A stretch of DNA of 64,000 nt from Bispira polyomma (Eukaryota), in contig OZ287750.1 in the NCBI GenBank assembly GCA_965649765.1, forward strand, positions 59,954,001 to 60,018,000, read 5' to 3'. The position numbers and the translations under genes were made by a program. The notes under the pieces are model-generated. The model had not been told where the DNA came from and ran no database searches. It was given only the letters and a program-made list of their open reading frames with translations. Shown here in pieces: positions 3,429-64,000 of this stretch. Numbering within the stretch: position 1 is the stretch's first letter; every line of letters starts with the position of its first letter.

Positions 3429-4958
3429 TTAATAGGAGGCTACTCTGGGTGACATAGGAAAGGTCTTGCGTATACCCATGCACTTCTCACGATCAACGGA
3501 TAGGGAGTTGTTCTTGACAGAGAGGTCCTGTTCCAAAGAGGCTTTGATACGGAGCAGGTGCTGCAGAGCATTCTCTGCCTCCCTCAGCTTGGCCTTCAAA
3601 CTCTCCACTGTTTCATTGATCTCAGACACCTCTGTTACCAGCCTGTGCTGTACTGGATCCCTGCATGACTCCACATTGGGTCTTCTTGTCCGGGTAGACA
3701 GCCTGGTCTGAGCTACCTGCATGGGAGCTGCCTTGTCCTGTATACACTTCTTCAACAGTTCGATGTTCTTCTCCATGTCAAAGATTTCTTGCAGAACCTT
3801 GGAGAGATGTGTCTGGAACTGATTCTTGGCATCCATATACTCGCGGATCCTGTCAGTGAAGGCATGGTTGACGGCATTCCACTGGTTGACCATGGCATTT
3901 GCACACTTGTTCAGCAACTGTTCAATTCGGTTGCGCATGTCTTTGGCAGCTGCCCGTTCTGCCTGAGAACGCTGGATGTTGTCATTGCTGAACTTAGCCC
4001 ATGACTCAGGTACAGATTGAGTATTATCCATCTGGGCGATGCCATCATGGTAGGCTATTCCCCGTGAGGTGTTCCCCAGCCCGTGACAGCTGTTGTCCAG
4101 GTTGAGAGCACTAAACTTGTCAGCAGAGTCCTTCTCCAGTTCATGCTGCCCAGCACAGTTCAGAGCTAATTGGTTGTTGGCATCCTGGACGAGTCTCCTC
4201 ATGTCTTCCTGGCATCTCTTGATGGTATCAACCTCCCTGATGAGCTCTTTCTCCACTTGGTCATGGACCAGATCAATGCCCTGTCTCTTCTCCCTGTTGT
4301 ACAGACACTCCTGGGCGATGTGCAATGGGTTCTCTGTCTCAGTCAGAGCCTTCTCTAGGACTCCCTTGGCCCGCTGAAGACCGTCTGTTTCTGTGATCAT
4401 GTTGTCAGTCTCGTTATTGACCTCTGTCTTCCAGAAGTTGATGTCCCCGATGCGCTCTCCCAGTTTCTTGCCCACATCTCTTTGGGTTCTCTTGGTCTTG
4501 TTGTCGGCTTCATTCACCAGGCGGCGGGTGTCTAAACGCACACGTTCGGAGCCACCGCGGACACAGTCAGAGGCCATGTAGTTGCTGGTGTTGGAGGCAG
4601 ACCAGTCGTTTGGGGTGTAGCGGGTGTAGAGGGCATTACGGGCAGCGGCGAACACTGGTGGCACCTTGATGCTGTCGAGTTCGGTGAGCCTGTTGCGTTC
4701 TGCCAGGGGCTCTTGCATTGAGCGAGTGTTTGAGACGTTGGGCTCCACTCGGGCAGTACCATAGTAGGTACTGGGTCTCCAGGGGAGGGTGGTCAGAGAT
4801 CTCCTGAGGGGGGTGGGTGCTGGGTAAGTGTCATAGGGCTTGTAGGAGGACTGCATGGTGGTACTAAGAGAGGGTAGAAAGTTCGGGGTAGAAGAGCTCA
4901 CCACACGGGGGCCTGACGTCATATAAGTAGCTGTCTTTGTATGGCCCAAATATTCCAT
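3429..4958 (-). CDS. TEKT3: Tektin-3/5-family ciliary microtubule inner protein, single exon, 509 aa from ATG 4958
   Basis: Uninterrupted ORF with tektin hallmarks: ARNALYTRYTPNDW, LGERIGDINFWK, PLHIAQECLYNREKRQGIDLVHD, RPNVESCRD nonapeptide, KNNSLSVDREKC. The ORF-track start at 5057 is a non-ATG codon. Confidence 0.93.
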   Translation of the reverse strand: MEYLGHTKTATYMTSGPRVVSSSTPNFLPSLSTTMQSSYKPYDTYPAPTPLRRSLTTLPWRPSTYYGTARVEPNVSNTRSMQEPLAERNRLTELDSIKVPPVFAAARNALYTRYTPNDWSASNTSNYMASDCVRGGSERVRLDTRRLVNEADNKTKRTQRDVGKKLGERIGDINFWKTEVNNETDNMITETDGLQRAKGVLEKALTETENPLHIAQECLYNREKRQGIDLVHDQVEKELIREVDTIKRCQEDMRRLVQDANNQLALNCAGQHELEKDSADKFSALNLDNSCHGLGNTSRGIAYHDGIAQMDNTQSVPESWAKFSNDNIQRSQAERAAAKDMRNRIEQLLNKCANAMVNQWNAVNHAFTDRIREYMDAKNQFQTHLSKVLQEIFDMEKNIELLKKCIQDKAAPMQVAQTRLSTRTRRPNVESCRDPVQHRLVTEVSEINETVESLKAKLREAENALQHLLRIKASLEQDLSVKNNSLSVDREKCMGIRKTFPMSPRVASY

Positions 4959-5123
4959 GGTGATCTTGTCTGTATCTGTGCAGTGACTCTGGTGTCGAAC
5001 TTCTTTGAAAACTATATATATTAGGAGGTCAAGATGCCTTAATGCCACGAACTGCAAATGCTGACGTCCAGTGTGTATAAGTACTGATCTCGGTTGTCAA
5101 ATATGGTGCCTTCCCCATTTACT

Positions 5124-7179: not shown

Positions 7180-9520
7180 ATTTTAAACATCAAAATCTGA
7201 ACCCAGTCAAGCTTATCCGTCCAGGTCACTGACTCGTCCTCAATCTGGTGCATGCTGACCGCATATGCGTCCTGTGCAATGTGCCAGGACAGATTTTTAC
7301 CTAGCTTAATTGTTTCTTTTAGTTCAGACAGTATTGGGCGTGTAAAAGTGGGGTCAGTGGTGTCTAATATATATTTTTAATTGACCTATGACAAAGTTCC
7401 CCATAGTTAGTTAATCAAAGGTCTCTCTCTTATGATGCGGACCGATGAGACATGCTTCATTGGGCCTTTTCTCCTGGGCAGCCAGGCTGGATGTATCAAT
7501 AATGTTGTAACGGCCACGTTTTCGACTTCTGTTACCTTGCCCGAATTCCATTTTCACTTTGGCTTTAAAGGCTGCTATTCTCTCATCAACGAGCATCTGA
7601 ATAATGGGATTCGATCTGAGCATATCCAGTGTAGCAGGGCCATCTGGTGTTGCAGCATCAACTTTCAAGGTGCGTTTGCATGGTTCATTGGCTGGTCTGC
7701 TAGTACTGGCTGGCATCTGCTGCTGGACACCCAATGGCCACCTATATTGATCAGTATGGGGATACATGGCGTAAAGTTCAAATCCCGTGGGATGTTGCAC
7801 GCTTCCCCTGAGTGCTCGTCTGAGGTGAAAAACGCGTTCTCATCTGCTGCACACTGATTGTGTGCTGTGGTATCATTTCCAAGGACGAAATCCCGTGAGG
7901 TTGTTGCCAACCCTGACTTTGGGTCTGTCTTGCTTGGGAGAACAATGAGTTCTGTGGTGGCATTTCACTGACAGTCATACCAGTAGAATTCTTTTGGTTC
8001 CTTCAAACGAGAAGGAGTCTTTTTAGTTTTCACTACATCTTTCACAATGACAGCCGTGCCTAGGAATGTTCTGGTCATGTAAGTCTCAGGGCTTGTTCAC
8101 ACTGCAGTGTTAAATGGTATCGCAAGCAGTGGCTCGTGATCTGTGTCACTGGTAATGAGATTTGGAATGTCATTGTTAAAATCCTGCAACCTAGATGTTC
8201 CTACCTTGGTAGCAATGCCCACTATCCTCTGTTCGAAGAAGGCCATTCTGTCCCCTCTTGTCTGGATGGTTGATAAAACTGCACCTAGGACAGCAGCAGC
8301 AACAGTCTCCTTGGTAACAACACTGTAACAACACTGTTCCGGCTGACAGTGCGAAGAACCTAGGAGTTACTTTTGACTCTGACTTCTCCTTCAAAAAACA
8401 TGTCTCAAATATCTGTGTTCCTGCTACGGCAACATCCGTGACTTTCGCAGGATCCAACGACATTTAACCCAAGAAAATGCCATTGCAGTGGCAAATGCCC
8501 TGGTATCAAGTCAAATAGATTACTCTAACTCACTACTATATGGAATCGGAAAGGGCCAAATAAACAAACGACAGAAAATACAAAATAACCTGTGCAGAAT
8601 AGTAAGCCATACTGGCCCTCGCACTCACACTACTGAACTGCTGAAACAATTACATTGGTTACCTTTTGACTTTCGTATTAAATTTAAGGCAATTGTCCTA
8701 ATTTTTAAGACAGTCCATGTACATCAACCTGCCTACTTATCATCTATGCTGTCTCTCAGTAATCTCACCAGAGGCAATCGTCTCTCCACCTTAGGTTTCC
8801 AACCAAAAAAACAAATTGGTTCAAAATCATTCTTGGTTGTAGCACCTGCTGAGTGGAATAGCCTCCCTACCAGTCTTCGGACTGAGACAAGCATCATGGG
8901 TTTCAGAAAAAGGCTCAAAACCCATCTGTATCAGCTCGCTTTTCCACCCTAGCATGCACCTGGTGGTCACGACTGAATCTCTGATCACGAACCTTTTTCC
9001 GTCTACCGGACTATGCTCTTGCACACTTACTAGGATAAGAGCCACAGAGGATGCCTGGTCATCGATTGTGGTGCTATAGAAGTAAAAACATTAACATTAA
9101 CTAGCTGCGAGAGCTGGCTCTGTAGCACTCATCTCCTGCTTTCCCATTCCTTTCTTATCACTGTTTTTGCCCACTTTCCTGGGTGTAGGTTTCTTCAAAC
9201 ATTTTGAATTTACTGGGCGCTTGTGCTCGACCTCGCACCTCTTACAAAACACGGTTGTCTTCTGGTGTATAACCTAAGAGGCCGTAGCCATCTTGATATA
9301 AAAATTTATAATACTAAAAAAAATTAAAAAAGCTTTTAAAATAAATGGAAATTCGGAACTCGCGACTGTGAGCTCAACAAATGAAATATAATGAGGTTAA
9401 AACAGGGCTGCTTGGCCTTATATTGTGAGTGGTCTCTTGTGATTGGCCAGTAGTCAAATGACTGGGCGAGTCCATTGGTGGACTGGTCGATTTCGACTGA
9501 AGGTAATAGGGTATCACCCC
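7180..9520 (-). mobile_element. 5' remnant (promoter plus gag-like ORF) of a YR retrotransposon related to the 58-64 kb element, split by a LINE
   Basis: FCKRCEVEHKRPVNSKC (about 9200-9250) matches FNCSKCSGKHERPVGAAC of the full element. TLDMLRSNPIIQMLVDERIA...GQG...RPNEACLIGPHHKRETFD (7411-7650) matches VELLRTNTQIQSQVELRLA...SQG...WPQNHVLTGNFRTRPTYD. Contains stops and frameshifts. Confidence 0.75.
8325..9100 (+). mobile_element. 5'-truncated L2-type LINE (RT C-terminus, 3' UTR, short repeat tail)
   Basis: AKNLGVTFDSDFSFKKHV; ANALVSSQIDYSNSLLYG...LHWLP..RIKFK...APAEWNSLP...FRKRLKTHLY; ends in a (CATTAA)n tail. Confidence 0.9.
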
Positions 9521-12223: not shown

Positions 12224-15200
12224 CTACAAAACAAACAAAAGACACTTCTGAAAAGTGATATACAGTGGTATACCTCTATTTTTAAAACACATGTCTGTAG
12301 AGCAGAATTTTGGTTTAGGTAATAGAAGGTTTCATAAAATAGAAGCGGAAATTTTCTGTATGAAACATAAATTTAGGGTGAGTTGAAAAAAATCAAATAT
12401 ATGGATAATAGAAGTTTGGATAAAATAGGTTCTACCATACTGTCAAAAATTCAACTGATTATTTTTTACTGAATATACATGTCAGAGACTTTATAAATCA
12501 GTCAAGTATTTTACAATTTTTACAATTTAATTATCTCATTTCAAGAAGCTAATCTTGTTATAATCTTGTTATATCACAAGGTCATCTCATTATCACAAGA
12601 TTAACTTGTTGTTAATGATATCATTATAATGAGATAGATCTGGTGCTAACAAGATCATCTTGTTCTTACAATTCAATTATCTGGTTATAACGATGTAGAT
12701 CATGTGATAACATGATTATTACAAAGGTATCTCGTTCTCACCAATTAATTATATTTTGGGGACAAGATAAATGAAATTGTGAGCACAAGATAAACGTGTT
12801 ACAATGAGATAAGATATTAATAGATATGTCCTAAAAGGGGCTCCATGAATTTGTCAGAAAACAGTGATATTTGCACTGGTTGGATTATATAAGGCTCCCC
12901 CTCTTTACAAAGACCCCTTGTTCACTACTTATATATACTTACCTTTTGACGTACATGAAGCAGACAATCATCCCCGCCACATAGATGACGATAACCAAAG
13001 CCACTCCAAATATAATGAATAGGGACATGCCTGCAAAAAAATACAATAGAAAATAATTCTGTTTGCAGATGACTATGAGTAAATTAGTGCCCAATATAGG
13101 TTAATTTTCTCAACTGAGAAATTAAGACAACAATAGCTCATCCAAAACACTTTAAAATCAATCTATTGCAGAAATGAAACATTTTAGTTTGAAATTTTAT
13201 TTTCACTAATTTCATTGGAATTAAGTTTCACTATAGGCTAAGTTTTAAAATTTCACCAGAATTAATTTTTGCTAATATAAGTTAATTTTCTCAATGTTAC
13301 TAATGAAGACAACAAGAGGAGCTCATCAAAAACAATTTAAAATCAATCAATTGTAAAAATGAAACATTTTAGCTTGAAATTTTATATTCACTTATTTCAT
13401 TGGAATCAAGTTTCACTATAGGCTAAGTTTTAGTTTCAAATTTTTACCGGAATGAATTTTTGCTACAGTAAGTTATTAGCTACAAAAGCCAAAATTAAAT
13501 GTACTAGCCTAAACCTTACACATTTACATTACTTGATTATTATATGATCATGATGGTTAAGTGCAAACAAATTAGTACTATATTTTTTACAAATTGCATC
13601 TACATCACAGCAAAACAGTATATTTTTCATTGTTCTAGAAAGAATGTGCAATTAAATATTTTTGAATATCAAGGTCAACTGAGGTCAAAATTTCTTGAGC
13701 AGAGTCACCTATCCAAAATTGAAATGCGTAGTAAAGAATTTAAGAAAACATGGTCAGTGTTTGCTACCTTTTTGACGAAATTGAATATGTAATATAATAT
13801 TATTGAACAAGAAAGTTTTGTAACCTGATATTGCTAGTTCATTAATAATTAGCCTATAGCAATAATATATACTTTAGCCTTTATAATGTGTTTAAATGGA
13901 ATTTATGTGATAATTATTGCTAATCTGCAAAATAATGTGTACCAGTCTCATTTTTTATGTAGTATATAGTAAGACTCATACTGTGTATGAGATATTTTGT
14001 AAAACCTCAATAGGGGGTTGGCTATGTTCGCCTCAATAGGGTACTTTTTGTGTGTCCTTTGTTGATGTGGTTTTTTTTTTTTTTTGTATTGTTCATTTTT
14101 GTTGTCTATATTGAGTAATTGTGTAACTTTTTTTTTGTTTGTGTATTGTATTGTAATGTGTAAAAAAAAAAAAAAAAAAAAAAATCTGGGCAGAGAGGCA
14201 GCTTTATGGATTTTCTATTACAATGTTATTGCAGCAAATTTTGATAATAAACAAAAGTTTATAATAATAAAAAAAAAAAAGAAGACTTTTCGGCCAAAAC
14301 TAAAGTTATCAGAAAAATTTGGGGGGAAACAATTGTTATTTATTATAAAGGTGTACAGGGGCGAATGTACCTGGCCGATTTTTCTTCCGAATTCTTCGTC
14401 CGTTTCCGTCAGCTCAAAAATATTGAAATATATTAAAATAGAGAAGTAGAATACATATGGTTGATGGCACATCCGAATCGGGAGCCAAATTTTTTCTGAT
14501 TGCAGACGAGAATATAAAGTAAATTTTATTGATTTTTTTTTATTATTCAAAACATGAATGCTACAAAAATCGGCCAGTTTTTCTGGTACAGTCCATCTGC
14601 AAATTCTGATGACAAAAACAGATGTTGGATGACAGATTTGGAAGTAAAATCGGACAGGTACATTCGCCCCTTACTGCAGCGGTTAGAGCCCACTAACAGT
14701 TAATTAGGCCCTACCACCCTGTGAATGTAATGGAAAATTTCAAAAGGGCTGAAGTTTATGTCCAGGCATCCTCCAAGTAGGCACAACATCCATAGGGTGA
14801 ATCATAATAGTCTAAGTACATAATGGGGTTCATAAGGAAAATGTGGAGCGTGTACTGAAAGGAACCTTTAAATAGGATAAAGGGGTGAATGTACCTGTCC
14901 GATGTTGCTTCCGGATCTGTCATCCGACGTCCGTTTCCATTATCAGAAAAAATTAAAATCAAAGAAAACAGAGAAGAAGGATACACCTGGTCGATGTCAC
15001 CTCCAAATCGGGAGCCGAATTTTTTTTGGATGATGAAATGGACGTCGGATGATGGGTTCGAAAGCAGAGTCGGACAGGTATATTCGCCCTTTAAGCCTGC
15101 TTGAAGCTGTATGACATTAGGTGTATTCTGGAAGCGAGTAGGCTTGTTTAATAGCGGATATCAATAGGTTAATTTTTACATTTACTAGGAGCTGCATAAG

Positions 15201-57965: not shown

Positions 57966-58884
57966 GTTTGACGGTTATTTATTGATGGATACTTTATGGG
58001 TCCAATATGTAAAAGAGATCAACTCACAGTAAAGGCCACTTATTTGTTTTCAATTCTTTTCTCTTTGAGGAGAAATTTTGTTAAAAAAAATGTTATTATG
58101 GCTTAATGAAACTTTTTTTTTTAAATCGTCCCCCCCCCACCAAAAAAACAACAAAAAACCCCACAAAAACATCCAAAAAAGAGAAGAAAACCCCCAAACT
58201 AATTGGCACTGGAGAATGAACATATATGTTGTAACCTTCATAATAAATATGTTTGTGTTTTTTCAGTTCCCCGGGGTTGGAACCTGAATTCAATCAACTG
58301 ACAAGCATACTACCTTTGAGTGTAACACAATGAAAAGACTTGCGGTTAAGTTTATTAGTGACTAGCATGTTAATGACTACTTCATATATGTACAGTTTCA
58401 GCTTTTAAATTTTGGGCATAAGGTCAACTTAAGTAACCACTTTTGACTTTAAGGTTACCATAAGATCACCTCAATTTAAGTTCAATTTAGCAATAAGGTC
58501 ACCTTAAGTGTAGGTTATTTCCAAAGGAGGGACACACTAGGGTGGCCATAAATTAAGTTAAGGGCAGCCTGAGGCTACCCTAACTTGAGTTTAGGAAGAG
58601 TGTTAATTTTGAAAGGTATGCAGCAAGGGGATCATATATTGGCCCTAAGTTGAGTTTAAGCATACCCAATATCTTTATTAAAGAAGTACTCTGAATGAGT
58701 ACGTTATGTAATTGAGGTTGGGCTGACCTTAAGGGTACATTATGTACTTGAGGTAGGTTGACCTTAGGCCCCAGCCAGGTAGTGTTTTACACTGCCCAGA
58801 TTTATACTTTATTAAACATTCATTTTATACATGTTATTTCTTTTTCAGCTGACCAGAACTCCAGAACATCAAACCCATGAACGC

Positions 58885-59870
58885 CTAAGAAGTAGTTTGT
58901 AGAGCCTGTCTGAAAGAATCCGCAACTTGGGAGCCTACTTGGGCAGAATCTGTGATATACCTCAAGACACAATCCGACGTCCAGGTGCCATGACGTTGAA
59001 TGTCCTGGACGTTAACATTATTATTAAATGCAAACGTGGCACCTGAACGTCGGAAGGAGTGGAAGGTCAGATTGGCCTCATGACAACCCAGCAGCTGAAG
59101 TACATTTTTCAGGTGCCGCCTGACACGAGTGTCAGTGAGAGGGCCCCAGGAAGAGCCAACCTTGAATTGAAACAGGGGGGCATTTTTACCAGGGGGAGTT
59201 AAAGCAAGTACATTCCTTAAGGCTGTTACAGGACAAAGGGTCGAACTAGAAATAACTGGAAGGGTCAGTAATCTAATACTATTGTTTGTTTGCATTGTTT
59301 TTAACCATTTTATAAGTAAAACTACATAGCCTGGTTTGAACAGGACATCCCCTCGAGCTAAGTGCTTTAAAGGAGAGTAAGTGGCCACAGAGTGTGGAAA
59401 AAGATTAGACAATCTAAGAAAACTGAAAAAGCTGGTTAAATACACTGCCTTAAAGATTTGATCCATGTATGTACAATCACACTTAGCAATTAATGCTTTA
59501 AGTAGAGGGATGTCAAAAATGCTCTTCAGTTTTGCTTGCAAGGGTTTGTTTATTACAAGAGACCGATTGAAGTACGAAATTCTAGGATCTGCAAAGCAGT
59601 CCACATTTACATGATGGAGAATACATTTAGCCTTCACAGCAGACAAGTAATTTACTATTTGAGTAGACGACACAGAGTTATGATTTAGAAATTCCAAAAA
59701 AGACAATAGTTTAAACACATTCACCTGAATAGAGGGCCAAGCCATAAAGGCCCCAAAGGCAATGAAGATCTTGAACATATTGTCGTAAGCTCGAGCTGTG
59801 GAGGCAGCAAAAGCAGAGTGTAACCTCTGGCACGCTCTATTTGCAAGCAGTGAGTCAACAGGATGCAGTC
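58885..59870 (-). CDS. Tyrosine recombinase (phage-integrase fold) of the retrotransposon
   Basis: Open frame; LRLSN (R), KWLKT (K), HSFRRSGAT (HxxR), HGTW.S, RY catalytic Tyr; no ATG before the AFAASTARAY helix. Confidence 0.93.
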
Positions 59871-59907
59871 CTAAAATGTTACAGAGAGACAACACGTAAT
59901 ACAAGTC

Positions 59908-62507
59908 TTAAATAGTCATGTCTATTTCCAACAATTGCTCATCCGCTTGTAGCCAGATGACATCCCCAGCCCGTTGCTTAAGTAAGTGCTCATTATTATT
60001 TGTTTTGTCCTATCGTGAGAGCAGATCTGCTATTTTGTTTTTGATACCCAATATATGTATCACTCGTATTTCGATATCGAAACGGCTAGCCCACATGTAG
60101 ATATTTCGTGTGTACGCAGCCAATGTGGGATCTTGAGTACGGCCCGTTTGTAATACACTGACAACCGCTTGGTTATCACATTTAAACAGTACCTTCTTAC
60201 CCCTCCAGTTCCTCGACCAAAGTTTAAGTGCTACTAGGATATTAATCATTTCGAGCGATGCTATATTATTATCAGTCATATGGCTTGGTACTGTCAACTT
60301 GTACACCTGGTTTCCACAAATACCTCCAATGCCAGTCAAACAGGCATCCAATTCGACCTGGGCATGTGTGGGTTTATGACAAAAGAAGCTAACGCCGTTG
60401 AAGTGACTTACAAACGTGGTGAACCAATTAAGGTCCTGCTTAAATTCTTTTGTTACTTTGAATTTTTCCCGACTATAATTGTCACGTAATAGCTGTAACA
60501 TCCTGTTCAGAAAAATACGTGCATATTTTATGCATTTAGCTACATATAGTAATGAACCCAATAACGATTGCAGTTCTCTCTTTGTGCACGGAGTTTTACT
60601 TTTCCAGCTTTCACATTTCTCTCTAATTTCGGTTAGCTTATCATCCGGAATGGAATTGGTGAAATTTTCTGTATCTACCATGATACCTAAGCACACTACC
60701 CGTGTGCTGGGGGCCACTAATGTTTTGCTACTTACTGTTAAACCGAGTTCAGCTAATAGAGCCTGAAGGCGTTCATAAATGCATCCAATTTTGCTGGGTA
60801 AGTTTACCACCAAAAAATCGTCTATATAGTTGTGTATGTTATAACCCTCTGACGTCATAATAAACCTAACTGTGTCCGACAAGCGTTGGAATATTGTACT
60901 TCCGTTCTGATACCCAAATGGAAGGCATCTGTCGACATAGTAGTTTTTCCACTGAAGACCTAACAAATTAATGTCGCCCGGGTCAATAGGGACGTGGCGA
61001 AAGGCCCTACTGATGTCGACTTTCAATATTTTGCAACTTCTGCCAAGTTGAATAACTTCATTTGTTATATTATCAACCGATGGGTAGGACAAGAGGAATT
61101 CTGTATTTAAGTATGATGTGGCAGATGCCCCTGCATTTACAGATTGACCACGTGGCCAGCTCAAATCAACTATTACCCTTCTGTTAGTGAAACTAGATTT
61201 ATCACGAGTCATCATGGTTGAGCAGTGCAAGTTTTTGATTGGAGGTTTAGTAAAGGGTCCTAGTATGGCCCCAAACTTGCACTCTTCCTCCAGATACGTG
61301 TCCACATGTTCCAGGAATTTATCCGCTGAGCTGTGGTTTATATTGTCGGACTGACTGATATTATTACGTTTCACATCTAAGGGAAATCCATATTTAACTA
61401 AAAGGGGAAGCTGCCAATCCCAGTAGTGTTTAAGGTAAGTCACCCACTTACTAGCATTCAATTGAGAGGACACAGCCAATTGCAGCCCCTTATAGTTATG
61501 CCTATCATCAGCATGCAATTTTTCATGCATTTGAAATATGTTAAGTCCATGGCTGGTATTACCAGTATCCCCTACTTTTTCACCCAGTGTTGTGAGTGGG
61601 ATAAAACCGTAATCTACCTTGTTTTGTTTCTGCCATTCATTATAAGTTTTGTCATTCTGAGCACTGTTTAAAAGTTCTCGCTTGTTTTTTCTTTGCTTCA
61701 ATTGTAAAGTATATTTGTCATTTAACCCATTGTTTTCAATGTGTTCTTTCTGTACAATTACTTTTTGTGCACATTGTGCGACCCTAGTTGTATGACATTG
61801 TTTTACATTTGTGACAACTTCTTGTGTTCTATTCACTTTGCACTCAACGTCCCCCTTGGTGCTAATGAGCCCCCCCCATTGTTCTCCACAATGTCCGTTT
61901 GGTTAAGAGGCCAAAACCTATTTTGGAGGGCGACACCCGAGTTGACACTTTTTGAAGTGTCTTTGTGAGCACTTTGCCTAATTAGTCTCTGCCTGCCCTG
62001 TTGTTCCTTTCCACAAGAATTGGATTTCTTTTGTGTCGTGGGAACAAAAGGGGAAGGGCAGTTGTCCAGAAAGTTAGCACTCGAGTTATTTTTAAAGCTC
62101 TTAGATGCTTGTTTTTGATTCATTGGTTTTCGTTCAAGGGTTGTAAATACCCCCTTTTTGTTACTTGGCAAGTTGACACTCGCTGTATTTTGAAGGCTTT
62201 CAAATGTTTGTTCTTGATTCACAGTTTTTTGTTTATGGGTTGTAAATACACCCCCTTTGTCACTTGACAAGTGCATTTTACATTTTTGACCCGTTTTCCG
62301 ACTTTCTGGCATATTAGGACAGACATCATTACACAAATATTTATTATGTACACCTTTGACAGCCTGGCTGTAAGTACAGCCAGTCTGTCTGCCTCTACTA
62401 TATACAAACATTTTTTCCCTATTTTGTTTATCAAATAACTGCAGCTCCTGGAAGCTAGAGTTATAAAAAATGAGATTATCCACTGAAGTAATGCAGTGGC
62501 CACTCAG
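59908..62507 (-). pseudogene. pol: long N-terminal extension, RT and RNase H; one frameshift (about 61835-61875) and a premature TAG (60010)
   Basis: RVIVDLSWP, KVDISRAFRHVP, LPFG, YIDD, CLGI, LQSLLGSL; RNase H LDAC..GIGG, LEMINI, CDNQAVV, NKIADLLSR*; frame continues to TAA at 59908. Confidence 0.9.
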
Positions 62508-63508
62508 CTTTTTGAAATCTTTTTACTACATGTGCTATTCTTGTGTGTGCCCCCACACCCTTCACAAACGTGTTTAAAGTAGGTGCTACCCGTTTTGTGA
62601 CTTACTGGGTACTTACAGGTTCCCTCCTGGAAGAACTTGCAATTAGCTGTAGTTTCTTTTGAATTCTGACTATTTTTATTGGCACCACGACTACTGTTAT
62701 TTTGCACAGCACTGCTGTTAATTACGTGCCTTTGGACATGCGCCCTTCTCATGCGCCCTTCTCATGTGCCATTTCCATTTGGGTCAAAACTACAGCGTGG
62801 CAAGCTTTTGCTGCCTCCCAGGAGAAATCCTCCGAATCCTCCATTAAATTGGACATGTACTCTAACATAATTTCCTTAATTTCACTACATTTCTCATCCT
62901 GAATAATTCGGGTGAAACCACAGACCCATTGAGCAATAGAAAGGTCATCATATGTGGGTCTTGTCCGAAAATTACCAGTTAAAACATGATTTTGTGGCCA
63001 TTCGACCACCCGTTTGACAATTATGTCAACACCCCCGCCTCTTTGTGATTTCAATTTACCTTGGCTGGGGCTTTCGTTAATTCTCTTAAGTTCAGCTAAA
63101 CGCAATTCAACCTGACTCTGTATCTGAGTGTTGGTACGCAAAAGCTCAACAGAAGGTACAACACTTTCGGGAGTGGCTAACACGTCAGAGTTACCGTTCA
63201 CAGAACTAGTACTGGCATTAACATTAGTCAAATTACTGGCCTGATTTTTGCTGTGATCTCCCGCCAAAGCTGCTTCTGTAGCTTGGATACGCTGATCCAT
63301 CCTTTCCATCATGGCACTCATTGACTGGAGCTGTAGTAATATCTGACTATTTACCCCAATGTCTGTATTCGAAAAGTCCACATTGGATGGATCAGCGTGC
63401 TCAGCGTTGACAGAAGGATCCTTCACCAGCTATTGTAAGTTTGCAGGCAGCACCAACGGGTCTTTCATGTTTCCCAGAGCATTTTGAACAATTAAAAACC
63501 GGAGGCAT
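62504..63508 (-). pseudogene. gag-like ORF1 with N-terminal Cys/His knuckle, coiled coil and C-terminal CCCH/CCHC-like fingers; two frameshifts
   Basis: MPPVFNCSKCSGKHERPVGAAC (ATG 63508); WPQNHVL..RPTYDDLSIAQWVCGF..SWEAAKACHAVVL; CKFFQEGTC..H..HVCEGCGGTH..C; frame breaks at about 63430 and 62755. Confidence 0.8.
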
Positions 63509-63681
63509 CGTAACACACACAGTAGATAAAATGATAAAAGTTTAAAATTCTAAAACCAGAAACAATTGTAAAAATTTAAACATAAAATTCCCAGAAAATT
63601 CCGGCTTCTGTTTCTGTTTAAAAAGTTGTTGTTCTGTGAACGTCTATTGTTTAAAGAGGTGGGAGCATTCGAATGGCTGGT

Positions 63682-63690
63682 CTTTTATAG
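63682..63690 (-). promoter_or_regulatory. Candidate TATA box of the retrotransposon
   Basis: CTATAAAAG about 175 bp upstream of the ORF1 ATG; the remnant has AATATAAGG at a similar position (about 9415-9423). Confidence 0.45.
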
Positions 63691-64000
63691 TAGCCGCAGT
63701 CATTCAAGCGTTACAATAGACTGGTATCCCAGAACTGAATTCGTCGGCGCTAGGGCGCTGCCTTATAAAAAGACACTTCTTGTCTTTTTCAGACTAGTAC
63801 CCTATCTGCGTGGTGGTTTGAAGAGACATTTTAGAGGTAGTTATGTGAAGGACCAGCATGGGCCAAACACATTGATCCCTGTTTCATCTACTTCTCAGCG
63901 TGCCATTAAAAAAACTTAAACCTAGAAATACAACCACAGTCATGGCATTATTACATTTTACTAGAAACACTGAAACTTTTACTGCTTGGAATGGACTCAA

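Follow-up and report, generated by a model that had tools for sequence, protein, structure and literature searches.

Conserved splice signals predict a fusion of Gag with the tyrosine recombinase in Ngaro-like retrotransposons

Ngaro-like retrotransposons of Bispira polyomma, one of which resides in the 64,000-nt stretch of DNA analyzed here (the window), probably make their tyrosine recombinase (YR) as a spliced fusion with the N-terminal part of Gag (Gag-N). On the basis of the conserved sequence signals, we put the probability of this reading at roughly 85%. The donor and the acceptor of the predicted intron form a conserved pair which fits the GT-AG consensus of spliceosomal introns and matches in phase. 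By comparison of related sequences, the feature is genuine, and its conservation reaches far past the window copy. A sequence-only reading of the window had placed the intron between a GT at 63059-63058 within gag and an AG at 59872-59871, an interval of 3189 nt, and these positions were found to be correct. As had been proposed, both sites fall in phase 1 and the predicted join is in frame. It reads ...ESPSQ-G-LHPVDSLL... and continues open up to the stop codon of the YR.

The window element spans approximately positions 63770 to 58264 of the minus strand and contains gag, reverse transcriptase (RT)/RNase H and YR in this order (Table 1). It fits the order DIRS, with matches to the Pfam families RVT_1, RVT_3 and PF00589 and a YR instead of a DDE integrase. 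According to published structural definitions (PMC4157794, PMC8547959 and PMC9210276, in their accessible parts) rather than by tree placement, it is a Ngaro-like YR retrotransposon. What it has in common with the Ngaro elements described there is the succession of the three genes on one strand, the lack of a methyltransferase and the split direct repeats. The pol frame ends about 34 residues past the RNase H match, and the last 148 amino acids of an intact pol matched only RVT_3. The Ngaro arrangement A1-[ORFs]-B1 A2 B2 is present in fuller copies (L219, L207, L198, L210), albeit with an extra, conserved spacer of 550-790 nt between A2 and B2 (A1-ORFs-B1-A2-spacer-B2). The window copy is without the A2-spacer-B2 tail; its only repeats are A and B. 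It is this conserved spacer, together with the conserved acceptor before the YR and its matching gag donor, that separates the elements from described Ngaro elements. A DIRS1-like element was rejected since neither terminal inverted repeats nor a methyltransferase are present, and a PAT-like element, which combines split direct repeats with a methyltransferase, was rejected because the latter is absent. Two distant relatives possess a downstream GDSL/SGNH hydrolase, which is also carried by Ngaro-like families of Xenopus (PMC9210276, accessible part). The window copy itself is broken, with frame damage in both parts of gag and in pol, and would make none of the products Gag, Gag-Pol and Gag-N/YR intact. 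The gag frameshift suspected near 63430 was located near 63417-63430. Moreover, the C-terminal part of gag is disrupted near 62755, pol has a frame break near 61833-61902 and a premature stop at 60012-60010, and the frameshift signal at the gag end contains one mismatch each in the slippery heptamer and the hairpin.

Table 1. Coordinates of the features discussed, given as positions of the window
Feature	Position	Strand	Remark
5' terminal repeat A (A1 of the split direct repeats)	63615..63767	-	Recurs downstream of B1 in the close copies L219, L221, L033 and L224
Gag N-terminal coding part, predicted exon 1	63060..63508	-	Cys/His knuckle and two long helices (predicted structure of the relative L052)
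gag frameshift of the window copy	near 63417-63430	-	Within predicted exon 1
Predicted splice donor GT	63058..63059	-	AAG/GTAAAT, phase 1, in the gag linker
Gag C-terminal part	62504..63059	-	Helical domain and C-terminal Cys/His finger; within the predicted intron
Predicted -1 frameshift signal for Gag-Pol	62480..62513	-	Slippery heptamer, gag stop, short hairpin
pol (RT, RNase H)	59908..62503	-	No methyltransferase after RNase H; within the predicted intron
Spacer of 37 nt from pol stop to predicted acceptor	59871..59907	-	TTTTAG (AG 59872-59871), phase 1
Tyrosine recombinase frame, predicted exon 2	58885..59870	-	327 aa; first ATG at residue 31
3' repeat B	58264..58865	-	End of the window copy
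Remnant gag of a distant YR family	7414..7839	-	Homologous phase-1 donor (GT 7535-7534)

Conservation of the two sites was analyzed in 101 copies, comprising the window element, 60 of the 122 matches of one search and 40 copies chosen from further searches. They were assigned to 40 subfamilies at 85% YR identity, the YR identity across the set ranging from 33 to 100%. Many families of this kind are present in the genome. Three YR protein searches of it each yielded more than 100 scored matches from about 13,000-14,000 candidate stretches, and the tree of the subfamilies, which all stem from this genome, is deep. Two groups of more distant relatives were included: 20 loci of the family to which the remnant gag belongs (YR 25-35% identical) and 79 loci fetched from metagenomes (24-38% identity), 53 of which were scorable for the acceptor. 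No relative was found in viral contigs. As the subfamilies share ancestry, counts of subfamilies are not independent and do not represent probabilities.

In the predicted structure, the donor is situated at the start of a low-confidence linker following the second long helix of Gag. A phase-1 donor was detected in 67 of 72 scorable copies and in all 31 scorable subfamilies, the other 29 of the 101 copies being those in which the gag motif could not be located; in the five scorable copies without it, the site is altered by point changes or deletions private to single copies. Across the 31 subfamilies, the exon ends with CAG (18), AAG (11), GAG (1) or AGG (1) and the intron invariably starts with GTA. 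The residue preceding the donor glycine (Q, K, R, P, S, T or A) is variable and so is the residue following it (K, R, N, T, M, I or S), even though the first base of the latter codon is A in 31/31. The glycine codon itself is GGT followed by A in every one of the 31 subfamilies. In 24 conserved glycine columns of pol which served as a control, GGT occupied 275 of 835 subfamily cells (33%); the best single column had GGT in 25/36, and none had GGT plus A in more than 12 subfamilies. Judging from these codons, the constraint on the donor acts on bases and not on residues. A fixed CAAG/GTAA at codons for QG, as anticipated by the sequence-only reading, is thus only partly borne out, because the GT is kept at synonymous positions but the motif is (C/A)AG/GTA with various residues before the glycine. 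Similarly, the window donor (CCAAG/GTAAAT) had been called strong; it is present, but its strength is only moderate, with agreement at 7/9 consensus positions and an A at +5. The donor is located 8, 14 or 23 nt from the next conserved motif, its position shifting in whole codons and with phase 1 kept. As a background value, a phase-1 donor-type site was found in 15% of 16-codon windows (306/2056). Coding constraint biases the donor controls taken in the other phases. No other phase-1 donor is common to 23 gag-N regions, and a second candidate donor (GGT-GAR) after the knuckle was rejected since the subfamilies do not share it. The donor extends to the distant relatives. The remnant in the window is a gag homologue (profile E 2.4e-9) with a glycine at the matching place, and the homologous donor CAAG/GTAACA already noticed in it could be substantiated. 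A phase-1 donor exists in 20/20 loci of its family, five of them with the weaker GTGGGC. Distant metagenome gags revealed it in 20/20 scorable sequences versus a background of 20%, in a search window that was chosen after inspection of those sequences and with a variable donor position.

The acceptor of the window copy follows the pol stop codon (TAA at 59910-59908) at the distance of 37 nt that had been read before. Within -24 to +15 nt of the homologous site, an in-frame YAG is present in 99 of 101 copies and in 40/40 subfamilies, as had been expected for a phase-1 acceptor that always precedes the YR; the two remaining frames have one in 21 and 20 copies, representing 11 and 7 subfamilies. 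In 98 copies, the acceptor lies at offset 0 or +3. Forty representatives, one per subfamily, showed T at -6 (38), T at -5 (39), a pyrimidine at -3 (40) and AG (40), and the strict motif TTNYAG occurs at the homologous site in 37 of them compared to 0.5% per phase-1 position in pol/YR. The spacer between the pol stop and the acceptor varies from 6 to 69 nt and is unconserved apart from the acceptor motif. In the family of the remnant, 15 of 16 scorable loci (four of the 20 were unscorable) have an in-frame acceptor at the same offset, and 51 of the 53 scorable metagenome relatives have one no more than 15 nt from the site, off-frame acceptors amounting to 9 and 11. Many YR proteins in databases possess N-termini that read like translated acceptor tracts, which is to be expected if gene calls ignore introns.

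The YR frame of the window has its first ATG at residue 31 from the acceptor, corresponding to residue 43 of the listed open reading frame, so that the reported lack of an early start codon is correct. Across the 40 subfamilies, A19, T24 and Y28 are invariant and L8, A12, R15 and F20 nearly so. All of these conserved residues between positions 8 and 28 are located upstream of the common first Met31, on helices 1 and 2 of the model. Conserved N-terminal residues without a start codon indicate, at the sequence level, that the YR needs an N-terminus from elsewhere. An in-frame ATG, or a pol-overlapping frame, upstream of the YR in intact copies had been named as an argument against splicing; many intact copies have neither such an ATG nor a usable overlap, but in 19/40 subfamilies an in-frame ATG does occur no later than residue 8. 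These ATGs would suit an alternative in which the acceptor is real but joined to another donor, in the 5' leader or from a host promoter, or in which the YR has its own short transcript, translation starting at a nearby ATG or a non-AUG codon. In four subfamilies (20, 22-24), the early ATG is found directly after the acceptor. A leader donor is in fact used for env by retroviruses. Nevertheless, this alternative is unlikely. The other 21/40 subfamilies have no such ATG despite the conserved residues 8-28, and among them is a young family in which 11 copies do not differ at all in the 401 nt surrounding the acceptor; its member L207 has three open frames. Several early ATGs are located upstream of the acceptor and would be lost on splicing. 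Moreover, both sites stay in phase 1, which a leader donor would not require, and synonymous sites of the gag donor are under constraint.

Another possibility is that the YR is made as an extension of Pol by ribosomal frameshifting or stop readthrough. This was proposed for Ngaro in the review of Poulter and Butler (2015) which, in the sentence quoted in PMC13003380 (2026), describes a -1 overlap of the YR with pol and a programmed frameshift as its probable means of expression. To some degree the present elements are consistent with it, as 12 of 35 scorable subfamilies have a short -1 overlap, and in eight others, as well as in the window copy, the YR is in frame after the pol stop, which makes the window copy on its own compatible with readthrough. 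On the other hand, the -1 overlap is confined to these 12 subfamilies, seven have a +1 overlap and in eight the passage is blocked by further stops (87 copies counted; six with broken pol ends were left out). Unlike in the reviewed Ngaro elements, the frame relation is thus scattered, and it even differs between sister copies. A slippery heptamer was present in just two of the 23 copies that have a -1 overlap, the spacer between pol and YR has the variable length and sequence described above, and the gag donor would be left unexplained. Expression as a Pol-YR extension is therefore very unlikely.

For pol itself, frameshifting is the preferred explanation. Signals for -1 frameshifting classically consist of a slippery heptamer followed by a hairpin. 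At the end of gag, A AAA AAC with a hairpin 5-9 nt later was detected in 63/101 copies and 24/40 subfamilies, compared to 6/101 copies in a control region in the body of pol. By inspection, pairs of the hairpin stem swap between subfamilies, and several further subfamilies have the heptamer with longer stems. Pol is likely to be made via this predicted -1 frameshift. The family of the remnant has no slippery signal; in some of its members gag and pol form one frame across a stop. Splicing of pol from the same gag donor was considered, with a phase-1 CAG in the 3' arm of the hairpin as candidate acceptor, but this CAG has no T-rich tract, and pol is explained more simply by the slippery site with its hairpin. 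Finally, that the motifs of the predicted intron are kept without any splicing, for the protein or for other reasons such as a required glycine, AT-rich spacer DNA or shared descent, is hardly credible: the glycine is conserved in most related gag proteins and T-rich spacers raise the odds of TTNYAG, but the codon GGT plus A persists over seven different next residues, unlike in any glycine column of pol, and the acceptor stays at one offset over the deep tree and in relatives of only 24-38% identity.

The gag gene was named by its position, its Cys/His motifs and synteny; there was no Pfam match, and a fold search gave nothing at E <= 0.001. The knuckle residues are invariant in 14/14 gag-N sequences, and the prediction of a Gag-N dimer received a score of 0.02. 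The YR matched Pfam PF00589 weakly, and its model (pLDDT 87) has a Cre-like fold. The fold matches, at 12-17% identity, cover the greater part of the chain, with a best E of 9e-8 and a TM of about 0.65 to Cre. Residues of the catalytic type are present in the window YR (R152, K190, H270, R273, W296, Y304). The protein thus resembles Cre, Xer and lambda integrase in its fold and catalytic-type residues, but differs from them in its low identity, in being encoded by a retrotransposon and in the predicted Gag part that would replace a native start.

Traces of the spliced product were sought in reads, genomic copies and protein databases. Three read runs of unrecorded kind, genomic-looking with flat coverage that included the flanks, were aligned to the window element and a young copy, and no donor-acceptor joint was among the joints listed (89 and 29 more were unlisted). 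Spliced genomic copies were absent from the best 40 of 358, 40 of 218 and 40 of 166 matches of three queries spanning the sites and from seven loci chosen because their YR frames are long or truncated. Two short junction probes had no match either; the second contained a one-base error, which left no room for any further mismatch. The searches for genomic copies are weak tests, and packaging of a spliced RNA is not a requirement. No Gag-N/YR fusion was present among 268 YR-like database proteins (120 of 207 near-length matches plus the best 150 of 15,502 representatives), 55 gag matches or two longer gag-N matches.

According to the splicing reading, part of the full-length RNA would remain unspliced and act both as the genome and as the mRNA of Gag and, via the -1 frameshift, of Gag-Pol. 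The spliceosome would process another fraction to the Gag-N/YR message by joining the phase-1 donor in the gag linker to the phase-1 acceptor just past the pol stop. The moderate donor would fit the need to leave much of the RNA unspliced. For the subfamily of the window, the fusion would comprise approximately 477 aa, as calculated from the close copy L218, whose open gag-N has 149 codons and one base before the donor; the earlier estimate of about 475 aa is in good agreement. It is conceivable, if speculative, that the knuckle and helices of Gag-N deliver the recombinase into Gag particles or to the nucleic acid they contain.

Retroviruses express Gag-Pol by -1 frameshifting and env from a spliced RNA. 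The predicted strategy is similar in that a third gene would be read from a spliced RNA devoid of pol, and pol via a slippery site plus hairpin. It is different in that the donor is located deep in gag, by which about 130-230 gag residues would be fused (350-380 in the family of the remnant), and in that splicing would yield the enzyme for integration instead of an envelope protein. With regard to earlier descriptions, spliceosomal introns in some YR retrotransposons are reportedly mentioned in the 2004 abstract of Goodwin and Poulter, so that the splice may have been described before. No description of a Gag-N/YR splice was found in the accessible parts of the literature searched. Splicing or introns are not mentioned in PMC3783388, PMC3266345 and PMC9210276, and the accessible parts of PMC4157794, PMC8547959, PMC12477816, PMC10294476, PMC9341512, PMC2632668, PMC9940879 and bioRxiv 10.1101/2020.06.13.149070 contain no such splice; the intron in PMC7192593 is, in the part available, an engineered marker intron. 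Splicing of a retrotransposon is known from Ty1/Copia, where, according to the accessible part of PMC5580714 on Arabidopsis EVD, conserved alternative splicing of gag balances the proteins and gives a short Gag-only RNA. In contrast to Copia, the product predicted here would be a fusion of Gag-N with a recombinase.

The odds lean slightly towards a wider interpretation, namely that splicing of Gag-N onto the YR is the ancestral, clade-wide route in a major Ngaro-like branch, that the true enzyme is a Gag-loaded chimera of which the annotated YR frames are start-less fragments, and that a retrovirus-like plan, undescribed in print, was reached independently. The view that the YR is translated by a probable frameshift from pol is at odds with the scattered frames of the elements studied here, while the splicing reading would explain YR frames without a start and offers an exact and cheap test, as there is one junction per family. 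If it is true, biochemistry on the annotated YR frame misses an N-terminal part of 130-380 residues, which may govern packaging or target choice, and the gene models for an abundant class of elements would need correction.

At the end of gag, 63 of the 101 copies carry a slippery heptamer followed by a hairpin, a predicted -1 frameshift signal for synthesis of Gag-Pol. The front of pol is variable and contains a 99-nt tandem duplication in the window copy; similar duplications were also detected in other subfamilies. The gags in the family of the remnant (L232-L251), a gag piece of a distant YR family, are longer, with open frames of about 440-590 aa and 350-380 residues preceding the predicted splice donor. 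These gags lack the slippery site. In L248 and L251, pol lies in the same frame as gag, after the gag stop, which suggests a different route to pol.

Features of the window and of the compared loci
Feature	Position	Strand	Remark
Predicted -1 frameshift signal, Gag-Pol (slippery heptamer and hairpin)	window 62480-62513	-	conserved at homologous sites
99-nt tandem duplication	window 62071-62272	-	variable front part of pol
Remnant	window 7414-7839	-	family: L232-L251
A2-B2 spacer	L219:1092-1751		also L224, L221, L033, L207, L198, L210
GDSL/SGNH hydrolase frame	L124:5008-5694; L158:4419-5036		downstream of YR; distant relatives
Complete tektin domain	window 3429-5096	-	single uninterrupted frame; Pfam E 6e-145
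189-aa frame	window 8383-8952	+	

The hydrolase frame of the two distant relatives is also known from some Ngaro elements. Among the other frames in the window, the tektin frame is possibly an intronless copy. A Pfam search with the 189-aa frame gave no match; judged by eye, this frame looks similar to the end portion of a LINE-type reverse transcriptase.

In the copies listed for the A2-B2 spacer, the split direct repeats deviate from the textbook order B1-A2-B2, as A2 is separated from B2 by a conserved spacer of 550-790 nt without a long ORF. A single B forms the terminus of many copies, including that of the window. Head-to-tail tandem copies, or a gag located directly 3' of YR, were found at L208 (tandem with a 5.5-kb period), L218 and L048 and on the metagenome contigs L094, L102, L118 and L162. 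Such arrangements might have originated from circles integrating into earlier copies.
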